Source: Escherichia phage iGC_PHA_EC001. From it: DNA of 64,000 bases. This document shows, piece after piece, positions 4,675 through 37,819 of the stretch; position 1 is the stretch's first letter; every line of letters starts with the position of its first letter. The stretch lies in the sequence record OR437326.1; one strand, written 5' to 3'. Position numbers and translations under genes: made by a program. The notes under the pieces were generated by a model. The model was not told the origin of the DNA and did no database searches. It saw only the letters and a list, made by a program, of their open reading frames with translations.

Positions 4675-4943
4675 TAGTATTTCTCCTCTGGTTGGAAAAC
4701 GGAACGACAGGCCCACATAGAAGCTTCTTTCAACTTAGTCTTTGCTATTGAAATTTGGTCAAGGCGGGTGGATATATTGGTAGACTCTTCCAAATCTTCA
4801 CAATCATCCAGTTCAGTCCACAATTCAGACATTAGAGCATCAAAGATTAAGCCTAATCGAACTTCAGCATCTTTAATAGCATTCACTTTACCAATTTTGT
4901 CATCGGTATGCGGTTTATAACCTTTGATATCTTCGATTCCCAC
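4674..4943 (-). CDS. hypothetical protein
   Basis: ORF track 4674-4982; preferred start GTG after AGGAGGTAAA RBS, which avoids overlap with upstream gene. Confidence 0.4.
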   Translation of the reverse strand: MGIEDIKGYKPHTDDKIGKVNAIKDAEVRLGLIFDALMSELWTELDDCEDLEESTNISTRLDQISIAKTKLKEASMWACRSVFQPEEKY

Positions 4944-9163: not shown

Positions 9164-9673
9164 TTAAACAAAATAAAATGGTTGAGAGAGGCCCAAACGA
9201 TTCTTTGGGTCGTATACATACCAAGCGTATGCTGTCTTATCTGTTCCACCTGCAACAAACGAAGGCCGTTCTGAAAGGACTATAAGGTTTGTTGGTGGAC
9301 TCTTTTGATGGAACTCTCGTCGTTTCTTTGACTCCAAGAAGCCCAACCTAAGAAGATAAATACAAACATCCGCCTCTTTTAAGCTCTTTTCCAAGAACTC
9401 CATTGCCAACTTAAATGGAGGATTTGTGATTATAATGTCGGGACGATTTTCCCATTCATGACTAAAATAATCTTTACCTTCTTCAAGTTCGCAATATTCT
9501 GAACCTTCAGGAAAATGGCGATAAATCGCTTCAGCTTCACCTCTGCAAGGTTCTGCAAAAACCCAACCTTCTTCCTTTAAATTTTTGAAATCTATAACAC
9601 TAAACAAACTATTGATTGCTTTTTGCGGTGTCGGATAATAATCGCTCGTTGGGCGATCATAATCTAATGCCAT
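9164..9673 (-). CDS. small DNA N6-adenine methyltransferase-like protein
   Basis: DYYPTP motif plus IIITNPPF (motif IV NPPF); GAGGAG RBS. Confidence 0.5.
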   Translation of the reverse strand: MALDYDRPTSDYYPTPQKAINSLFSVIDFKNLKEEGWVFAEPCRGEAEAIYRHFPEGSEYCELEEGKDYFSHEWENRPDIIITNPPFKLAMEFLEKSLKEADVCIYLLRLGFLESKKRREFHQKSPPTNLIVLSERPSFVAGGTDKTAYAWYVYDPKNRLGLSQPFYFV

Positions 9674-10136: not shown

Positions 10137-10829
10137 TTAAATAGCGGTTCCTTCGAAATCCGCCACATTTACGAGATTAATATTTTCAGATTTAGAAGTC
10201 AAGTTGTTTTCTGCAACAGATTTTTCTTCAGTATCCGCCTCGTTACCTGCCACGTTACGAGGTTCTTCTTCACCGTAGGGATTACCGAATTTCAAAAGAT
10301 TGATCAATTCTTCTTTGGAGAAGTTTTCTAAATCATCATCTGTTAATTCAATAATCTCGTCTTGTTCTTCAATAAATGTTTCACCACCAGAAAAAGCATC
10401 TCGCTTTTTAGCTACTTCCATAGCTTGTTCTGGTGTTGCCCCTGCATCAAGAGCAGCTAAAGCAAAATCTGACCCACTCCCTACTGCATAATATTCTTCA
10501 TCAATCGGATATGCACGTGTTGGGTTGTTACCCTCGTGCAGGAAAATACGTCCGTCTGGATGAACAACAAGTGCAATAAACTCTTCATCTTCTTTGTCTG
10601 GATCAGAGTGAATCATCAAACCAGGGACAGCATCACGTGCTGCTTCGCACTGTAGATTTTGTTCAAACCATTGAAAGAAAGAAAGCACGGAGGTCAGACG
10701 ACCAGCACCACCTACAAGGTAATCTCCAATTTTTCGGACCTTTTTGAAATTAATAGAATCTACACGTCCACCAAAAGTTACCTTACCGTCACTCAAAATC
10801 TTATTTTTGGTTGCAATAATTGTCGTCAC
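10137..10829 (-). CDS. HslV-like Ntn-hydrolase peptidase with long acidic C-terminal extension
   Basis: GTG start giving N-terminal TTIIATKNK (catalytic Thr after Met removal); FKKVRKIGDYLVGGAGRLTSVLSFFQWFEQ aligns by eye with E. coli HslV [38 protein letters not shown] RBS. Confidence 0.6.
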   Translation of the reverse strand: MTTIIATKNKILSDGKVTFGGRVDSINFKKVRKIGDYLVGGAGRLTSVLSFFQWFEQNLQCEAARDAVPGLMIHSDPDKEDEEFIALVVHPDGRIFLHEGNNPTRAYPIDEEYYAVGSGSDFALAALDAGATPEQAMEVAKKRDAFSGGETFIEEQDEIIELTDDDLENFSKEELINLLKFGNPYGEEEPRNVAGNEADTEEKSVAENNLTSKSENINLVNVADFEGTAI

Positions 10830-14486: not shown

Positions 14487-14495
14487 TTTCTCTCC

Positions 14496-16442: not shown

Positions 16443-16449
16443 TTTATAT

Positions 16450-17106
16450 TTAGCCTCGAAATACTGTTTTTGTTTCCGCCAGGTGCCAATAGAAATCAGC
16501 TTTGTTTACAAGAGTGTTGTACACCTCTGGATAAAAATGTTCTTCCTCTTTGTAACGATCTGCTGTTTCCCTGATTGACTTAGCTTTATCCTTTAGCCAA
16601 GCGAAGTGTGCCTCTTCCTCTGTAGAGAAGTAGCCTAAATGCTTTCCTTTACTCCCAGAAGCTTTGGCATAAATCTTACCATCTTTCCTAACATGTGCTC
16701 CTAGTAAGTATTTTCTTTCATACCTCTTAGCATAACTTAAGAGTGTATTTATATAAGGAGGAACAAACCTACAATATTCAGGACAATAAACAGTATTTCC
16801 TTCAAGAACAAGATCTTTATCTAAAACAAAGCCTTCCACATTGTGTTCTTGATACCAGTTATCAAAGTTTGAAAAGGTGAACCAAGCATCACACACAGTA
16901 ACATCTTTATAACCTGGTCTAATGTTTTCCATACGATATGCACGATTAAACATGCCTTTCCAAGCTGCATAGGAAGGGTCTATGAATGTATTAACCCTTT
17001 TCCCATTGATAACACCACCTTCCCACAATCTACGTTCAACATCCACAATCAAGGGGATTTCTCCCCTCTCTGTGAGAACGGTAACTTTACGTTTACCCTT
17101 CTTCAT
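16450..17106 (-). CDS. putative free-standing homing endonuclease (AP2-like DNA-binding domain)
   Basis: sits between nrdA and nrdB, a classic homing-endonuclease site in phages; C-terminal GKHLGYFSTEEEAHFAW resembles AP2 domains of phage HNH/AP2 endonucleases; catalytic motif not confidently seen. Confidence 0.45.
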   Translation of the reverse strand: MKKGKRKVTVLTERGEIPLIVDVERRLWEGGVINGKRVNTFIDPSYAAWKGMFNRAYRMENIRPGYKDVTVCDAWFTFSNFDNWYQEHNVEGFVLDKDLVLEGNTVYCPEYCRFVPPYINTLLSYAKRYERKYLLGAHVRKDGKIYAKASGSKGKHLGYFSTEEEAHFAWLKDKAKSIRETADRYKEEEHFYPEVYNTLVNKADFYWHLAETKTVFRG

Positions 17107-17117
17107 CTGTTCTCCTA

Positions 17118-19361
17118 CTACATTTTACAGGCACTACACCCTTCGTCTTCAGAATCTTCTTGTGCTAAAGAATCTGCTGATTTTGTTCTACTGTTAAGGT
17201 AATACAATGACTTACCACCCAGTCTAGCAAAGTTCAAAATAAATTTCATCTCTTCTTTAACTGATAAACGTCCCCCTACCAATTTAGAATAATCTAGCCA
17301 AGAATCACAAGAAATTCCTTGGTCCGTAAACTTGGTAAAGATACCATACATTTCTGCAAGATCTTTAGCCGGAGTATCCCAGGCAGACTGGTAAAACATT
17401 TTCAGTTTTTCGTAGTCTGGAACAATAAATAATACACTACCTTTCTGACTTTGTTTATACATAATAGTATCACGAACAGGATACAGAGAGTTAGTAGTAT
17501 TGCTTACCAAACTGCTGGACTCATTAGGTGCAATAGCAGCCAAGACACTGTTACGGATACCACCTTGTTCAATGATTTCAGCACGTAAGCCTTCCCAGTC
17601 CATTTTAAGATCAAAATTACCGATACTATCTACTGTTTTAGCATAAGTGTCAATTGGTAGCCAACCTTGAGGCCATTTGGTCTTATCGATCCATTCTGCA
17701 TTACCTTTTTCCTTAGCCAGACGCAGAGAGGCTTTTGCCAACCAAAAGTAATGACGTTCTGCAAGTTCATGCATTAATTTTTTAGCATAAGCATCTGAAT
17801 AATTTACAAAATTACTTGCCAAGTAATGCGCTAAGTTTGTAATGCCTACACCAATAGATCTACGTGCTTTAGCAGTTATTTCGTTATGTTTAAATGGATA
17901 ATCCATTGTTTCAATAACGTTGTCAATTGTCAATACAGTGTAATATGCAACATCCTCATATTCTTCAGGTAAGACACGACCAGCAACAATAGAAGATAAG
18001 AAGCATAAAGCCAATTCTTGATCTTCTGTATTCTCACCAGTAAAGAGATCCGGCATACTGTGGAAAGCTTTAGTTGGTAAGAAGATCTCTTGACACAGGT
18101 TTGATTGATACACCGTATCCAGGAAAGGTGTATGGTTGTTAACGTTGTCAGCAAAGAACATGTAAATACGTCCTGTTTCTGCACGTTGAACAATAATCTC
18201 TGTCAGAAGATCACGAGCCTTAACAAATTTTTTCTTAATGCGACGACGGCTTACTTTGTCATAAACTGCATCAAACTCTTCTTCACTTTTATACAAAGCT
18301 TCATAAAGTTCAGGAGCATCATCACAACTAACTAACATCCAATCTTCGTTTTTTGCTGCTCGACGCAAGAACGAACGGTTAACAACAATAGAATAATCTA
18401 GTTTGTCTACTCGTTTATCTATAGGTGTTGTTGGATTCTTCAGTCGAATTAGATCGTCGAAGTCTGGTTCAAGTATGGTAAAGGTAACTGTAGCACTACC
18501 TCCACGACTTGCTTGCTTCGAAGCTCCAACACTATCTTCCATCCATTTCAGATACGGAAGAAGACCACCATGAATAATACGATTATTCTTAACACCTTGA
18601 CCTGTGGCACGAGTTTGAAGATTAACACCAATACCTGCGTTATTCAACGTATACTCATGAGCTAAGTAATTAGCAATGGCTAAAGATTCTGCCGTATCGT
18701 CTGCACGGAATAAGCAACAAGACGCACTTCCTTTGATTGGAGTTCGTAGAGTTGTCAGATACGGCGATGGCAGATTAATCTTAAGATCGCTAACATAAGT
18801 ATAAAGTTTTTTAATATCTTCTATACGGCGTTCTTTTGGTTGGATCTCCATAACCTTCATTGCGATACCAATGAAAAGAAACTGTGGAGACTCATGCACC
18901 ACATCGTTTACTGCATCTCGAATAAGATATTTATCTACCATCTGACGTAAAACAGAATAACCATAAGTTAGATTTTTATTATGCTTTACAATCTTACCGA
19001 TTTCTTTGATCTCTTCATCAGTATAATCCATTTTATCCCAATGTCCACGTTCTACCATATCATGATAAAAGGTATTCAGTGAAGGGATACTGTGGTATCC
19101 CCCATGAGCCTGTTTGTAAATCATACCCAGAAGAAGTCTTCCTGCCATATCACTGTAAGCTTGTGTTTTCTTGTCAATACACGCTGCAATCATTGCTTTA
19201 TGCAGATCACGTGTAGACACACCGTCATAACACCGCTTCACAGCTTCTAATTCAATTTCAGACCAGTTTAGTTTACCTGCTGCAAATTCAGACCACTTGC
19301 GAAGTTTTTCTGGATTAAACTCCTCTGTCTTACCGTTAGATTTAGTTACAAAACGAATCAA
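17118..19361 (-). CDS. nrdA: ribonucleotide reductase class Ia large (alpha) subunit
   Basis: 747 aa; N-terminal ATP-cone-like region, conserved Cys-containing blocks and C-terminal Cys pair (CSACKM); TTG start after GGGAGGAG RBS. Confidence 0.9.
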   Translation of the reverse strand: MIRFVTKSNGKTEEFNPEKLRKWSEFAAGKLNWSEIELEAVKRCYDGVSTRDLHKAMIAACIDKKTQAYSDMAGRLLLGMIYKQAHGGYHSIPSLNTFYHDMVERGHWDKMDYTDEEIKEIGKIVKHNKNLTYGYSVLRQMVDKYLIRDAVNDVVHESPQFLFIGIAMKVMEIQPKERRIEDIKKLYTYVSDLKINLPSPYLTTLRTPIKGSASCCLFRADDTAESLAIANYLAHEYTLNNAGIGVNLQTRATGQGVKNNRIIHGGLLPYLKWMEDSVGASKQASRGGSATVTFTILEPDFDDLIRLKNPTTPIDKRVDKLDYSIVVNRSFLRRAAKNEDWMLVSCDDAPELYEALYKSEEEFDAVYDKVSRRRIKKKFVKARDLLTEIIVQRAETGRIYMFFADNVNNHTPFLDTVYQSNLCQEIFLPTKAFHSMPDLFTGENTEDQELALCFLSSIVAGRVLPEEYEDVAYYTVLTIDNVIETMDYPFKHNEITAKARRSIGVGITNLAHYLASNFVNYSDAYAKKLMHELAERHYFWLAKASLRLAKEKGNAEWIDKTKWPQGWLPIDTYAKTVDSIGNFDLKMDWEGLRAEIIEQGGIRNSVLAAIAPNESSSLVSNTTNSLYPVRDTIMYKQSQKGSVLFIVPDYEKLKMFYQSAWDTPAKDLAEMYGIFTKFTDQGISCDSWLDYSKLVGGRLSVKEEMKFILNFARLGGKSLYYLNSRTKSADSLAQEDSEDEGCSACKM

Positions 19362-34024: not shown

Positions 34025-34137
34025 TTCTTACCTCCTTTGTTGTCAAAATAACTTACCAGAACATCGTGAACCACACACATGGCAAAAATCAGAACAATTG
34101 TTGTCAGGACCGGATTCTCACTAATTAGTGCTATCAT
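34021..34137 (-). CDS. small hydrophobic (membrane) protein
   Basis: start at MIALISENPVLTTIVLIFAMCVV after GGAGGTGG RBS; track ORF begins earlier. Confidence 0.35.
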   Translation of the reverse strand: MIALISENPVLTTIVLIFAMCVVHDVLVSYFDNKGGKK

Positions 34138-34444
34138 CTTTAACCACCTCCAATTGCCTTTCGAGTTTGACTTTGTTTGAGAACTGATAATGACACAACT
34201 TACATTGCATGTCAACAATCTGATCGTGATTTAACCCTACAATTTTAACTTCCTTTGCACCATCCCATTCCAAATACTCAAAGCCATCCAAATGAGTACT
34301 CTTGTCCAACAAAAATGCTATCTGCTGCCATTCGATCTGAATGTCATTTAAATGATATGCTGCACAGAAGATATCCTCGTAGTAAAAGACGATCATTGTC
34401 ATTGCTTCGTCCAGCACAACTACCTCTTGTCTTGTAAATCTCAT
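34121..34444 (-). CDS. hypothetical protein (first gene of leftward block)
   Basis: RBS TAGGAGG; 107 aa. Confidence 0.5.
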   Translation of the reverse strand: MRFTRQEVVVLDEAMTMIVFYYEDIFCAAYHLNDIQIEWQQIAFLLDKSTHLDGFEYLEWDGAKEVKIVGLNHDQIVDMQCKLCHYQFSNKVKLERQLEVVKDDSTN

Positions 34445-34687
34445 TCTAGCCTCCTAAACGCGTCTCTGACGCACTTTTTATATATAAGATGATAAATCAC
34501 CTTACCTAGTAAGTGAACTTGCTCTACGAGCCTCTTATGAAGCTTATGTTATAGGCTATACTATTGCTACCTGTTTAAGCAAGGTTTTTGCACACAGAAA
34601 ATAATTTTAATAAAACTCTTGACTTTTGTGTTCGAAGTATGCTACCCTAGAAATCTATTAACGAGCGCAGCGAGTTAAGGTTTTAGG

Positions 34688-34905
34688 TTGTTGATGTAGT
34701 ACTCTGTACTCAAGTACTGTACTCCGTACTAGATTAATAATTATTAAATATTAATAATAAATAATTATTAGATCTAACAAACAGGTACAGTGTATCAGAA
34801 CTGGTACGTACAGATCAACTTCTATCAATTAAAAATAAAATAATAAATTATTATAAATAATACTTGATCTATAGATCAGTATGAAGTACAGTACGGAACA
34901 TCTTA
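34688..34905. repeat. strand-switch region with clustered GTAC(T) repeats, AT-rich palindromes (TAATAATTATTA x2) and GATCTATAGATC palindrome
   Basis: five GTACT within 34697-34730 (gtagtactctgtactcaagtactgtactccgtact), further GTAC copies at about 34784-34815 and 34884-34895; no ORFs; lies between divergent gene blocks. Confidence 0.6.
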
Positions 34906-34923
34906 ACAAGATGGAGGTGTGCA

Positions 34924-35109
34924 ATGATTAGCGAGAATCCGTGCAAATGGCATCATGTACCTATTAAAGATTGTATGTCTTGTAATCCACGTTCTATTTA
35001 TAACATTGCATCTTATGACGATGACATTGTGTTAGACGATGATGAAGGCTGGGAGGATTTAGATTGGACTGGTTATGAAACCAAAAAGGATAAAATTATT
35101 CCTAGTTGA
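34924..35109 (+). CDS. hypothetical small Cys-containing protein
   Basis: RBS GGAGGTGTGCA; 61 aa. Confidence 0.4.
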   Translation: MISENPCKWHHVPIKDCMSCNPRSIYNIASYDDDIVLDDDEGWEDLDWTGYETKKDKIIPS

Positions 35110-35901: not shown

Positions 35902-35976
35902 GGCCCTGTAGCTCAATGGGAGAGCTGTCGGCTCATAACCGATAGGTAGCTGGATCGAAACCAGCCAGGGCCACCA
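35902..35976 (+). tRNA. tRNA-Met (anticodon CAT; could alternatively be Ile2/lysidine)
   Basis: acceptor GGCCCTG/CAGGGCC, D-arm TAGCTCAATGGGAGAGC, anticodon loop CTCATAA, T-arm GCTGGATCGAAACCAGC, encoded CCA. Confidence 0.7.
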
Positions 35977-35978
35977 AA

Positions 35979-36053
35979 GTCTTTATGGTGTAATGGATAG
36001 CACAGGAGTCTTCTAAACTCTTAGTCAAGGTTCGATTCCTTGTAAAGACACCA
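35979..36053 (+). tRNA. tRNA-Arg (anticodon TCT)
   Basis: acceptor GTCTTTA/TAAAGAC, anticodon loop CTTCTAA, T-arm CAAGGTTCGATTCCTTG, CCA encoded. Confidence 0.7.
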
Positions 36054-36249
36054 GAACATTTTAACATGAATTAGCTCAAGTGATTTGAACCCACTACTGA
36101 TCATGGTGGCAGAGAATGAGGCAAGTATGTCAGACATTATAAACAAAGGCCACGGTTATATTAGAAGACATAAATGCTCGAAGAGCACCGTTCGTGGAGA
36201 ACGGGGGTTGGTGGAGTCACCATTCATGGTAAAATGTTTTAAAAAACTA

Positions 36250-36280
36250 TTGACAACAAACATTATTTTATGTTAGATTA
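36250..36280 (+). promoter_or_regulatory. sigma70-like promoter (AACTATTGACAA family, copy 2)
   Basis: TTGACA at 36250-36255, TAGATT 18 nt downstream, immediately upstream of tRNA-Ser. Confidence 0.45.
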
Positions 36281-36287
36281 TAAGTAT

Positions 36288-36378
36288 GGAAGGGCAAATC
36301 GATGTGGCGACGAAAACGGTCTTGAAAACCGCCGAGCTTGAAAGAGCCTTGGGAGTTCGACTCTCCCTCCTTCCGCCA
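36288..36378 (+). tRNA. tRNA-Ser (anticodon TGA), type II with long variable arm
   Basis: acceptor GGAAGGG/TCCTTCC, anticodon arm CGGTCTTGAAAACCG, T-arm GGGAGTTCGACTCTCCC, CCA. Confidence 0.65.
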
Positions 36379-36383
36379 GATTA

Positions 36384-36469
36384 GGTAGATTGGTGAAATG
36401 GTAGCCACGACAGTTTGCTAAACTGTAGTCGGAAACGGCGTGTAGGTTCGAGTCCTACATCTACCGCCA
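36384..36469 (+). tRNA. tRNA-Ser (anticodon GCT), type II
   Basis: acceptor GGTAGAT/ATCTACC, anticodon arm ACAGTTTGCTAAACTGT, T-arm GTAGGTTCGAGTCCTAC, CCA. Confidence 0.65.
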
Positions 36470-36599
36470 AGTTCTTTTTAATGTAGCTTACTTTAGCAGA
36501 GTAAATCTTCGGCAAGTGGCGGTAACCACTTTACCGATACCTCATAGTTAGTGGTCTGAACACTGGCTATTTTAAAAAGAATTTAAATATTAGTATTTA

Positions 36600-36687
36600 G
36601 GTGAGTTAATTCCGTAGGGGTAGCGGGGCAGACTGTAAATCTGTTATCATTGCGATTCGGGTGGTTCGACTCCATCACTCACCACCA
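36600..36687 (+). tRNA. tRNA-Tyr (anticodon GTA), type II
   Basis: acceptor GGTGAGT/ACTCACC, anticodon arm GCAGACTGTAAATCTGT (near identical to E. coli tRNA-Tyr), T-arm GGTGGTTCGACTCCATC, CCA. Confidence 0.65.
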
Positions 36688-36693
36688 AATTAA

Positions 36694-36779
36694 GATGAGT
36701 TGGCTGAATGGTTTAAGCGGCGGACTGTTAATCCGTGTTCGAAAGAACAATATAGGTTCGAATCCTATACTCATCGCCA
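36694..36779 (+). tRNA. tRNA with anticodon GTT (Asn by anticodon) but atypical long variable arm
   Basis: acceptor GATGAGT/ACTCATC, anticodon stem-loop GCGGA-CTGTTAA-TCCGT at positions 27-43, extra hairpin GTTCGAAAGAAC, T-arm ATAGGTTCGAATCCTAT, CCA. Confidence 0.45.
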
Positions 36780-36786
36780 GAATTAT

Positions 36787-36862
36787 GGACTTGTAGAGTT
36801 AAGGTAAACCCCAGTAGCCAAGAGGCTTCTGGAATTGCAGGTATCGAATCCTGCCGAGTCCC
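36787..36862 (+). ncRNA. tRNA-like element without canonical anticodon arm (possible pseudo-tRNA or small RNA)
   Basis: acceptor pairing GGACTTG/CGAGTCC and T-arm-like GCAGGTATCGAATCCTGC, but central region folds as CCAG-T-AGCC-AAGA-GGCT-T-CTGG hairpin. Confidence 0.3.
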
Positions 36863-36868
36863 AGCTTT

Positions 36869-36943
36869 GCTCCTATAGTATAATGGCTATTACAACGGTT
36901 TTGTAATCCGTGGATCTCTGTTCGATTCAGAGTGGGAGCACCA
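36869..36943 (+). tRNA. tRNA-Thr (anticodon TGT)
   Basis: acceptor GCTCCTA/TGGGAGC, anticodon loop TTTGTAA, T-arm CTCTGTTCGATTCAGAG, CCA. Confidence 0.7.
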
Positions 36944-37211
36944 ACACAACATTAAGGGCACTGTGATTGATCGTCGTATCCTGTGCACAAGGTCTGTTCG
37001 AAAGACAGTGTTCTTAGTATTGTGTTGATCACAAAAAGAGTCACCTGAAACTTGACCGGAGTAGGGTTGGATGGGGTAAAGAAGAAGCGGATTCTCCCAT
37101 CGACGTGATAGTTTTCCAGTGTTGCAAGCGACACCCAGGAGGTTAATCACAACCGAACGTAGGGCTAGTCACCCAAAGGGATACTCGTCACTGTCCCACT
37201 CAATAAAACTA

Positions 37212-37242
37212 TTGACAACCAATAGTAAAATGTAGTATAGTA
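37212..37242 (+). promoter_or_regulatory. sigma70-like promoter (AACTATTGACAA family, copy 3)
   Basis: TTGACA at 37212-37217, TATAGT 18 nt downstream, upstream of tRNA-Gly. Confidence 0.45.
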
Positions 37243-37252
37243 AATATGTAGG

Positions 37253-37326
37253 GCGTTCTTGGTGTAGCGGTAGCATTCCGTCCTTCCAAGTCGGCGGCAC
37301 GAGTTCGATCCTCGTAGAACGCTCCA
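37253..37326 (+). tRNA. tRNA-Gly (anticodon TCC)
   Basis: acceptor GCGTTCT/AGAACGC, anticodon loop CTTCCAA, T-arm ACGAGTTCGATCCTCGT, CCA. Confidence 0.65.
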
Positions 37327-37424
37327 AATTATTTAATAAAGGGTTGCCAGAAAACTTTCTCTTTTACTCATGGTTTTCTCCTTCTCTCACACTTCTTCTG
37401 GTTGCCCTTCATTAAATGATTTAT

Positions 37425-37500
37425 TGGTTTGTAGTGTAGTCAGGTAGCACACGACACTTTGACTGTCGTAGGTTTGGTTCAAATCCAGACAGACCAGCCA
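37425..37500 (+). tRNA. tRNA-Gln (anticodon TTG)
   Basis: acceptor TGGTTTG/CAGACCA, anticodon arm CGACACTTTGACTGTCG, T-arm TTTGGTTCAAATCCAGA, CCA. Confidence 0.7.
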
Positions 37501-37505
37501 TATAA

Positions 37506-37582
37506 CGGAATTTAGCTCAGTTTGGTAGAGCATACGCTTTGGGAGCGTAGGGTCGCAGGTTCGAATCCTGCAATTCCGACCA
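37506..37582 (+). tRNA. tRNA-Pro (anticodon TGG)
   Basis: acceptor CGGAATT/AATTCCG, D-arm GCTCAGTTTGGTAGAGC, anticodon arm TACGCTTTGGGAGCGTA, T-arm GCAGGTTCGAATCCTGC, CCA. Confidence 0.75.
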
Positions 37583-37588
37583 ATTTAA

Positions 37589-37662
37589 TGTTTCGTAGTT
37601 CAATGGTAGAACCCACGACTGATAATCGTGAGATACAAGTTCGATTCTTGTCGAAACAACCA
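37589..37662 (+). tRNA. tRNA-Ile (anticodon GAT)
   Basis: acceptor TGTTTCG/CGAAACA, anticodon arm CACGACTGATAATCGTG, T-arm ACAAGTTCGATTCTTGT, CCA. Confidence 0.75.
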
Positions 37663-37664
37663 GT

Positions 37665-37734
37665 TTCCCGTTAGACTTACAGGATAAGAGTTCCACAACT
37701 TATTGTGATGCTGGTTCGAATCCAGCACGGGATA
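37665..37734 (+). ncRNA. tRNA-like element, anticodon not assignable
   Basis: acceptor TTCCCGT/ACGGGAT (1:72 mismatch) and canonical T-arm GCTGGTTCGAATCCAGC, but no 5-bp/7-nt anticodon stem-loop could be folded (CACAA-CTTA-TTGTG tetraloop hairpin instead); no encoded CCA. Confidence 0.3.
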
Positions 37735-37740
37735 CCTAAT

Positions 37741-37819
37741 AGCGGGATAGAGGAGTCTGGTCGTCCTCGCCAGTTTCATATGCTGGAGATCATCGGTTCA
37801 AATCCGATTCCCGCCTCCA
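37741..37819 (+). tRNA. tRNA-Met-like (anticodon CAT) with unpaired 1:72 and TTCAAAT T-loop (possible initiator-type)
   Basis: acceptor AGCGGGA/TCCCGCC (A1 x C72), anticodon arm CCAGT-TTCATAT-GCTGG, T-arm ATCGGTTCAAATCCGAT, CCA. Confidence 0.5.

Follow-up and report, generated by a model that had tools for sequence, protein, structure and literature searches.

Clustered GTAC sites in a predicted early promoter hub of Phapecoctavirus genomes: a candidate control array

Background

Why should a phage genome that avoids a short palindrome crowd it into a single intergenic gap? The question is raised by a stretch of 64,000 nucleotides (nt; hereafter the window) of Escherichia phage iGC_PHA_EC001 (sequence record OR437326.1), in which the gap between a leftward and a rightward block of genes (positions 34445-34923) is packed with the tetranucleotide GTAC. 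The source phage belongs to Phapecoctavirus (subfamily Stephanstirmvirinae), a group of 150-kb myophages of E. coli. Our literature search for Stephanstirmvirinae (phAPEC8-like and phi92-like phages) found neither a promoter study nor an origin study, and no paper describing a GTAC cluster. An initial annotation had proposed that the gap is either a replication origin or an iteron-like control region, possibly a binding array for a phage regulator.

We consider it likely that the gap is the central early promoter hub of the phage, and we refer to it as the hub below. As for the ten GTAC sites in it, the best explanation we can offer, tentatively, is a single-copy protein-binding control array, which lies on two predicted promoters (P2 and PL2) and on the zone where the transcripts of P1 and PL2 would overlap.

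Results

No tetranucleotide is more under-represented in the window than GTAC, with 49 copies against 185 expected under a second-order Markov model (ratio 0.26). Ten of these 49 copies lie within 196 bp, at 34699-34894 (Poisson P = 9e-12). When 49 sites were placed randomly in 64 kb, the maximum reached in 20,000 trials was five per 200 bp. Collapsing tandem copies to single events still leaves four independent loci in 200 bp. In the whole of a near-identical genome (MG065650, 150 kb), GTAC occurs 162 times against 455 expected (ratio 0.36) and there is no second cluster of hub density; the next densest one has six sites and sits in a 1.87-kb rmlA/rmlB segment that is absent from the window. 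No GTAC clusters suited to be operators were seen elsewhere, and the other close GTAC pairs that we checked all fall within open reading frames (ORFs). The cluster is real and statistically extreme, specific to this lineage and present once per genome. Genome-wide rarity of a short palindrome, as found here for GTAC, is what marks restriction-site avoidance; the hub cluster is an exception to this avoidance and no instance of it.

The avoidance itself differs between lineages. The ratio of 0.26-0.36 in the lineage of the window compares with 0.62 in phiWec190 and 0.69 in phi92, both of which lack the cluster. Depletion is thus strongest in the very lineage whose hub is dense in GTAC. Another tetranucleotide, GATC, occurs four times in the gap against 2.1 expected, which is not significant, and TAGATC/GATCTA is mildly enriched (four against 0.34 expected). 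Across hubs, we counted 3-4 copies of TAGATC/GATCTA in the window and phi92 and two in phiWec190, against roughly 0.15-0.3 expected.

Half of the ten sites form a compact array. The five GTACT units reported in the initial annotation were all recovered, in a 35-nt stretch beginning at 34696 (gtagtactctgtactcaagtactgtactccgtact), with units at 34699, 34706, 34714, 34719 and 34726. Unit length varies between 5 and 8 bp and the start-to-start spacing is 7, 8, 5 and 7 bp; Tandem Repeats Finder, when run on the region, reports the AT block only. The remaining GTAC motifs quoted earlier are present as well: ggtacagtg at 34784, tggtacgtacag at 34802 and gaagtacagtacgg at 34883. Two further claims needed correction. 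The GATC-containing palindrome GATCTATAGATC, described as a perfect 12-mer, does stand at 34866, and its true length is 14 bp (TGATCTATAGATCA, 34865-34878). The AT block TAATAATTATTA, said to occur twice, has one exact copy at 34735; the second is AATAATTATTA at 34760, with 11 of 12 positions matching. Together they belong to an AT near-palindrome that abuts the array (block 1 in Table 1), whose DNA fold has a z-score of -3.27 and which is a candidate unwinding element or cruciform.

Searching related phages for the array, as proposed in the initial annotation, gave 64 matches in the phage collection, every one of them at the same locus. We therefore dismissed a mobile element or a second copy of the array. 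A metagenome scan likewise met the same locus only, in two matching contigs that both carry all ten GTACs. A search of IMG/VR returned no match to the array, and querying IMG/VR at the protein level with the flanking gene gave none either. Around 64 GenBank genomes match the locus at 92-99.8% identity; for E. coli phage ESCO13, a database comparison over 34300-35100 gave 99.8%. Among eight related phage genomes that were aligned, seven have the array intact. One GTAC is missing in phAPEC8 and a single one is lost in anhysbys, and a 13-nt deletion has removed two units in DW-EC.

The core of the locus (34685-34800, 116 nt) shows somewhat higher conservation than the gap around it. Its identity across the 64 carriers is 88.8-100%, reaching at least 90% in 63 of them and at least 99% in 57, whereas a wider stretch of 324 nt reaches at least 99% in 22 of 64. 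Outside the clade the picture is different. In the alignment with phiWec190, Citrobacter phage Tr1, phi92 and Klebsiella phage FKP3, the GTACT array lies opposite a gap in all four relatives. The AT near-palindrome aligns without gaps, at almost zero identity and opposite non-AT sequence. The other five GTACs occupy homologous promoter positions at which the relatives carry different bases.

These promoter positions emerged from comparison with the above four relatives and phiWec179. The flanking proteins of the relatives are 33-92% identical to those of the window, and their intergenic DNA is almost unalignable, yet it keeps a fixed skeleton, as judged from a five-genome alignment (window, phiWec190, Tr1, phi92 and FKP3) and from raw sequence comparison. 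On the basis of consensus and conservation, we predict that the gap carries four sigma-70-type promoters (Table 1). All of them, P1, PL2, P2 and PL1, have two hexamers separated by a spacer of 16-18 bp, as expected of this class. The hexamer positions of P1, PL2 and P2 are kept in five genomes with unalignable spacers, which is what a phylogenetic footprint should look like. A strict consensus scan lists PL1 only, because the -10 elements of P1, PL2 and P2 match TATAAT at just three of six positions.

Conservation is most pronounced in P1, where TGnTACCCTAA is invariant in the five aligned genomes and the -35 reads TTGAC(T/A); transcription would start at about 34654-34657. PL2 faces P1 and would start near 34782. 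Its hexamer positions are conserved in phiWec190 (TTGATC, 18 nt, TACTAT), Tr1, phi92 and FKP3. The homologues of P2 in phiWec190, phi92 and FKP3 read TTGAC(T/C), 17 nt, TA(G/C)A(G/C)T. For PL1, phiWec190 and phi92 have kept the spacer GGTAAGGTGATT as well as the -10. The -35 hexamers of PL2 and P2 stand back to back, with AT-rich block 2 in between; the block has an equivalent in all relatives compared and probably serves both promoters as shared UP-element-like upstream DNA.

Several of the motifs noted in the initial annotation fall on this skeleton. The GATC palindrome corresponds to the predicted -35 and spacer of P2, gaagtacagtacgg to its -10 and start, and tggtacgtacag together with ggtacagtg to the spacer, -10 and start of PL2. 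Individual GTACs coincide with the P2 -10 (34886 and 34891), the PL2 spacer (34804 and 34808) and the PL2 start (34785). The GTACT array and AT block 1 both lie in the zone between the face-to-face promoters P1 and PL2; block 1 belongs to none of the predicted promoters, and block 2 contains none of the motifs noted earlier. The designation of the gap as a control region, and possibly a regulator-binding array, can stand.

Three of the four predicted transcripts, those of PL1, P1 and P2, would start with a small leader hairpin. The P1 mini-hairpin occurs once in the window. Among eight sequences, 87.5% of its alignment cells are paired and two pairs are compensatory (UA to CG and AU to CG), a score attained in none of 500 shuffles. 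The 6-bp hairpin of the P2 leader has a z-score of -3.07. The hairpin on the PL1 side folds as DNA with -4.7 kcal/mol (z -2.25) and resembles a terminator if read on the plus strand; in phi92 and Tr1, by eye, an equivalent hairpin with another stem (GCTC..GAGC) stands in the same place. Four of the five genomes also share a recognisable motif, (A)GATCTAACA(A/G)AC, which in the relatives lies about 25-35 nt past the leader hairpin. In Tr1 and phi92 it is followed by an inverted repeat, AGAC-N9-GTCT, which the window lacks.

The lineage of the window has the promoter and GNA-hairpin module in one copy. A second such module is found in three Justusliebigvirus contigs (4726-4759, 10340-10373 and 860-893) and consists of TTGACT, 18 nt, TGCTACCCTAA, approximately 13 nt and CGAGCGAAGCGAG. 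It precedes a small ORF whose product looks, by eye, like a membrane protein. As the module recurs in front of an ordinary small ORF, P1 with its leader hairpin appears to be an early promoter of a general kind and not an origin-specific structure.

Table 1. Genes and sequence features in and around the hub; all promoters are predictions
Feature	Coordinates	Strand	Description
First gene of leftward block	34121..34444	-	107 aa; PHROG 14390, function-unknown family; "hypothetical protein" in ESCO13 and nepoznato
PL1-side leader hairpin	34460..34472	-	GCGTC-aga-GACGC, 5' of the leftward gene's AGGAGG ribosome-binding site (34450-34455)
PL1, proximal leftward promoter (predicted)	34489..34517	-	-35 TTCACT (34517-34512), 17-nt spacer, -10 TATCAT (34494-34489); found by consensus scan
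P1, distal rightward promoter (predicted)	34619..34648	+	TTGACT, 18 nt, TGcTACCCT (extended -10)
P1 leader mini-hairpin	34658..34678	+	TTAAC-GA-GC-GCA-GC-GA-GTTAA; GNA triloop, tandem G.A pairs, covarying outer stem
GTACT x5 array	34696..34730	+	GTACTCT / GTACTCAA / GTACT / GTACTCC / GTACT; lineage-specific
AT near-palindrome (block 1)	34733..34770		38 nt, 100% A+T; arms 34735-34752 and 34753-34770
Motif (A)GATCTAACA(A/G)AC	34770..34783	+	Recognisable in window, phi92, Tr1 and, more loosely, phiWec190
PL2, distal leftward promoter (predicted)	34784..34818	-	-35 TTGATC (34818-34813), 18-nt spacer, TGaTACACT, -10 at 34794-34789
AT-rich block 2	34819..34863		91% A+T; between the -35 hexamers of PL2 and P2
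P2, proximal rightward promoter (predicted)	34864..34892	+	-35 TTGATC (34864-34869), 17-nt spacer, -10 TACAGT (34887-34892); includes the 14-bp palindrome
P2 mRNA 5' hairpin	34899..34926	+	CATCTT-AAC-AAGATG (34899-34913), then GGAGG ribosome-binding site (34913-34917) and ATG
First rightward gene	34924..35109	+	61 aa; PHROG 26411, function-unknown family; ATG at 34924

The genes on both sides give few hints. None of the flanking proteins has a Pfam match, and all their PHROG matches are to function-unknown families. The 61-aa protein contains a Cys/His cluster (C-x2-HH...C-x2-C) and its C-terminal half is very acidic, features that might make it a zinc-binding host-takeover or nucleic-acid-binding protein. 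Ten transfer RNA (tRNA) genes follow at 35902-37819, 3' of this gene. An eleventh tRNA-like element at 36600-36684 (+) scores 39 bits in Rfam, against a gathering score of 29, and is not called by ARAGORN. In GenBank records, the gap is annotated solely by an automatic "repeat_region" in three Danish genomes (nepoznato, anhysbys and tuntematon), which in nepoznato and tuntematon falls around AT-rich block 2. The gap was described as free of ORFs, and indeed 34500-34900 contains no ORF of at least 20 amino acids with an ATG start, for which reason a hidden small ORF or leader peptide was dropped.

Some of the records require comment. Two records labelled as Campylobacter and Acinetobacter phage (among MG065650, OP562383 and OR584014) are 98-99.8% identical at the locus to Phapecoctavirus of E. 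coli. In OR584014, labelled as Pseudomonas phage, the copy of the 61-aa gene is 80% identical and the DNA match at the locus is partial. The host labels of these three records may be wrong. The record of nieznany (MN850598) is cut inside the hub and its overlapping ends differ, one being complete and the other carrying a 67-nt deletion (window 34791-34857) that takes out PL2 and most of AT block 2. The two versions reflect either an assembly bubble or true heterogeneity of the phage population. As for the 1.87-kb segment mentioned above, it encodes RmlA and RmlB (dTDP-sugar synthesis), is present in B15 and BI-EHEC, and is missing from the window at 14495; its GTAC density is normal. In the other direction, about 700 bp of the window (16443-17149) have no aligned counterpart in B15.

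Discussion

Divergent or face-to-face early promoters are well known from the early regions of T4 and T5 and from pR/pL of coliphage 186, which constitute a convergent-promoter switch. Like these systems, the hub packs sigma-70-type promoters into an AT-rich strand-switch gap, and its sequence suggests an extended -10 (TGn), leader hairpins before ribosome-binding sites and opposed, overlapping transcripts. The hub also differs from them. Its -10 elements are odd and conserved (TACCCT, TACACT and TACAGT), and the zone between its opposed promoters repeats a word that the genome otherwise avoids. The promoter calls are, to judge from our literature search, new, and the central hub of the subfamily would now have a promoter map that can be tested.

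A possible model of GTAC function starts from four promoters served by host RNA polymerase. PL1 and PL2 would transcribe leftward, P1 and P2 rightward into the gene for the 61-aa protein and into the tRNA cluster. Transcripts from the distal promoters P1 and PL2 would overlap for about 127 nt (approximately 34655-34782). In the ESCO13/phAPEC8 lineage, the five GTACT repeats are placed in this overlap zone and further GTACs on core elements of PL2 and P2. We propose that a GTAC-reading factor of phage or host origin would bind the array of ten sites. When bound, it would occlude the -10 of P2 as well as the spacer and start of PL2, and it would form a roadblock between P1 and PL2. In this way the factor might set when early transcription runs leftward and rightward, or how the two directions are balanced. 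The features of the sequence and how well they are kept, the scarcity of GTAC elsewhere and the uniqueness of the cluster are observations; active promoters, a bound protein and its effect on regulation are what we infer from them.

The coincidence of GTACs with core promoter elements argues for such a control array, and so do the density and uniqueness of the cluster in a genome poor in GTAC, the stronger depletion of GTAC in this lineage than in its sisters, the conserved promoter skeleton with its recurring, covarying P1 hairpin, and the better kept core. The metboxes of MetJ, operators of a ribbon-helix-helix protein with two to five tandem 8-bp palindromic boxes, provide a precedent. As with metboxes, the short tandem palindromic units of the hub overlap or flank promoters and would suit cooperative binding. 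Unlike in metboxes, their period is variable, and no ribbon-helix-helix candidate was identified.

Several observations speak against a control array. No binding protein was identified for it, and no lineage-specific regulator gene is found within about 10 kb to the left and 5 kb to the right of the hub; the genes there are all shared with phiWec190 or phi92, and phiWec190 lacks the cluster. A 4-bp site is below the usual length of an operator, and the above spacings put the sites on differing faces of the helix. Promoter-like sites in the tRNA region (35106, 35663 and 36250) have no GTAC within 100 nt, so the presumed factor would not be a general repressor of early genes. Within the clade, the GTAC sites are conserved no better than their neighbours, as the losses in phAPEC8, anhysbys and DW-EC illustrate. 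Some GTACs may be by-products of -10 elements that start with TAC or end with GT before AC, and FKP3 likewise has GTACs associated with its -10 elements in this way. Finally, the promoters are themselves predicted, with PL1 alone flagged by the strict scan.

Could the hub be an origin of replication instead? Iteron origins, such as lambda ori, oriR of phage P1 with its five 7-bp GATC repeats, and those of plasmids, are one model for comparison. The hub shares with them five direct repeats beside AT-rich DNA, and the 7-mers of the phage P1 origin come close in form, as short repeats around a 4-bp palindrome. Iterons, however, are direct repeats of some 17-22 bp, three or more in number and in helical phase, and the hub units are irregular, 5-8 bp long and out of phase; they contain GTAC and not GATC. 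An initiator gene is not recognisable nearby. DnaA boxes do not cluster here either: the gap has one box with one mismatch, and the count in the window as a whole is that of chance. Of the iteron comparison there remains the adjoining A+T-rich element; unit length, phasing, initiator gene and DnaA boxes do not agree with it.

The layout of the locus resembles that of a transcription-activated origin. In T4 oriF (uvsY) and oriG (34), and in the primary origin of T7 (phi1.1A/B followed by an AT-rich region), transcription activates replication. By analogy, P1 or the P1/PL2 pair might open the 38-bp AT palindrome, with the GTACT repeats as a landing site for an initiator, a helicase loader or a nickase. 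Like those origins, the hub is single-copy, and its predicted promoter P1 has a very A+T-rich segment, which should unwind easily, within about 100 bp on its downstream side. The cluster and the AT palindrome lie approximately 45-115 nt downstream of the predicted start of the strong, conserved P1, the palindrome itself at about 80-115 nt, and the array abuts a fully A+T near-palindrome with significant hairpin potential. The hub also occupies the strand-switch point and a local minimum of cumulative GC skew. This minimum at about 34-35 kb was to be a check on the origin, and it merely tracks gene orientation, as the skew does across the whole genome, so that we dropped it as evidence.

Against such an origin, sister lineages without the array must replicate too, and they share the same skeleton; the array is lineage-specific, unlike the replication machinery, which is common to relatives that lack it. 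The recurrence of the P1 and hairpin module before an ordinary gene at another locus points in the same direction, as does the lack of an initiator gene and of DnaA boxes. An iteron-like origin at the hub is neither supported nor refuted, and we regard the transcription-activated version as unlikely.

The control array must also be weighed against the view that the repeats have no function at all. GTACTCN repeated five times would be a 7-mer minisatellite, GTACGTAC and GTACAGTAC would be small tandem duplications, and the other GTACs would be by-products of -10 elements. The repeats would persist owing to the youth of the clade and to weak selection against a single GTAC. The hub is certainly prone to insertions and deletions: besides the deletions in DW-EC and nieznany, there is a 10-nt duplication in anhysbys and variation in poly-A length. 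The fact that the GTAC sites are conserved like their neighbours within the clade, as well as the spread of 88.8-100% identity among all 64 carriers over the core, agrees with slippage. It is less easy to understand how slippage would place no fewer than four independent GTAC loci within 200 bp, and this in the very lineage that is most depleted of GTAC. With tandem copies collapsed, 0.1-0.7 loci are expected and P is still below 0.01. The core is, in addition, somewhat better kept than flanking intergenic DNA. We consider slippage without function unlikely, to about the same degree as a transcription-activated origin.

Function might, on the other hand, reside in RNA. GUACU units in the P1 leader could pair with AGUAC/GUACAG at 34868-34895 or with the antisense RNA from PL2, creating a target for RNase III or a control of read-through into the 61-aa gene and the tRNAs. 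The plus strand of 34655-34930 folds with z = -3.7 and includes a long-range helix between 34713-34735 and 34868-34895. The overlap of the P1 and PL2 transcripts, deduced from the promoter map, would supply the antisense partner, and leader hairpins elsewhere in the hub are supported by the covariation test. GTAC is, however, its own reverse complement, and GTAC-rich segments pair automatically; the minus strand reaches z = -2.9 too, and the fold z-score is therefore not independent evidence. The array by itself has no significant fold (z -1.1), and covariation cannot be assessed among carriers that are nearly identical. In Rfam, tRNAs alone exceed the gathering score and 34400-35000 gives noise (E of at least 3.3) with no match even at E up to 5, by which a known RNA family is dismissed. 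A function of the cluster at the RNA level seems to us rather improbable.

Returning to the control array, one can go a step further and imagine that this lineage gained the cluster and lost GTAC genome-wide as a single innovation. The hub would then be the sole legitimate target of a GTAC-reading factor, and off-target GTACs would have been purged. If true, this factor would be a replication initiator, a nickase or a master regulator, and a dense cluster of an avoided word would become a general marker for unknown cis-elements of phages and their binding proteins. We offer this as a speculation with a small chance of being correct.

Restriction-site avoidance is a general phenomenon of phage genomes, and the lineage-specific loss of a 4-bp palindrome resembles it. 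Signatures of palindrome avoidance differ from lineage to lineage within the subfamily. Besides GTAC (0.26 in the window), CTAG is observed 0 times against 80 expected in 50 kb of phiWec190 (LC739539 1-50000). In phi92, the most depleted of eight 4-bp palindromes compared is GGCC (0.44), followed by CATG (0.46), and the depletion of CATG is much stronger there than in the window or phiWec190. Avoidance nevertheless predicts absent sites and not one dense cluster. If a host system targets GTAC, the cluster might be a methylation-sensitive switch or a preferred site of breakage or entry, but added sites would only raise sensitivity to a GTAC endonuclease, and no mechanism is known to us that would let clustered sites protect a genome.

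A phage methyltransferase was dropped as the cause of the GTAC pattern. The candidate, a DNA methyltransferase of 169 amino acids (9167-9673, minus strand; PHROG 799, E 3e-59), has a TNPPF motif, minimal size and no Pfam match. It is 85-90% conserved in phiWec190 and phi92, that is, in lineages without the cluster and without strong avoidance.

A trace of host modification may be seen in the phage BI-EHEC. Over 47.6 kb aligned between this genome (OL505078 20300-70299) and the window (1324-49727), 19 of 31 GTACs are altered, including 11 of 11 GTACT, and nine of ten hub GTACs are apparently destroyed. ATAC is read at about three quarters of the 19 sites, in sequences that differ by only 1.4% overall. 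The BI-EHEC genome was built from nanopore reads only, using Guppy 4.0.11, Flye and Medaka (PMC8686590). DW-EC comes from the same laboratory and pipeline and from a different host (PMC8752677), and all eight remaining GTACs of its hub are kept. The BI-EHEC pattern is thus probably a systematic base-calling error at GTACs modified by the host and not by the phage, since the same pipeline left the sites intact with another host. This is an indirect hint that GTAC-specific modification, and with it probably restriction, exists in some E. coli hosts, which would explain the avoidance of GTAC as an anti-restriction trait and make the dense cluster harder to dismiss. Alternatively, the BI-EHEC pattern could stem from real mutations or a gene specific to that phage. 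Our literature search for GTAC-specific restriction-modification in E. coli gave Helicobacter and archaeal systems only. As an explanation of the cluster itself, restriction-modification is very unlikely.

A physical terminus, pac or cos site at the hub can be put aside, as the genome ends are about 54 kb distant: for Schickermooser, linearisation at observed read ends and a 328-bp terminal repeat have been reported (PMC6563267), and the hub is at 54.6-55.0 kb of its record. The cut in the nieznany record is no sign of a terminus either, because its ends overlap and differ by the 67-nt deletion.

Several Stephanstirmvirinae are in development for food-safety biocontrol and, according to the abstracts of the respective papers, considered for phage therapy. 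If the array binds a protein, it would open access to the early regulatory switch, or to the origin, of this whole phage subfamily. If it is inert, it would represent a clear case of slippage beating weak selection against restriction sites.

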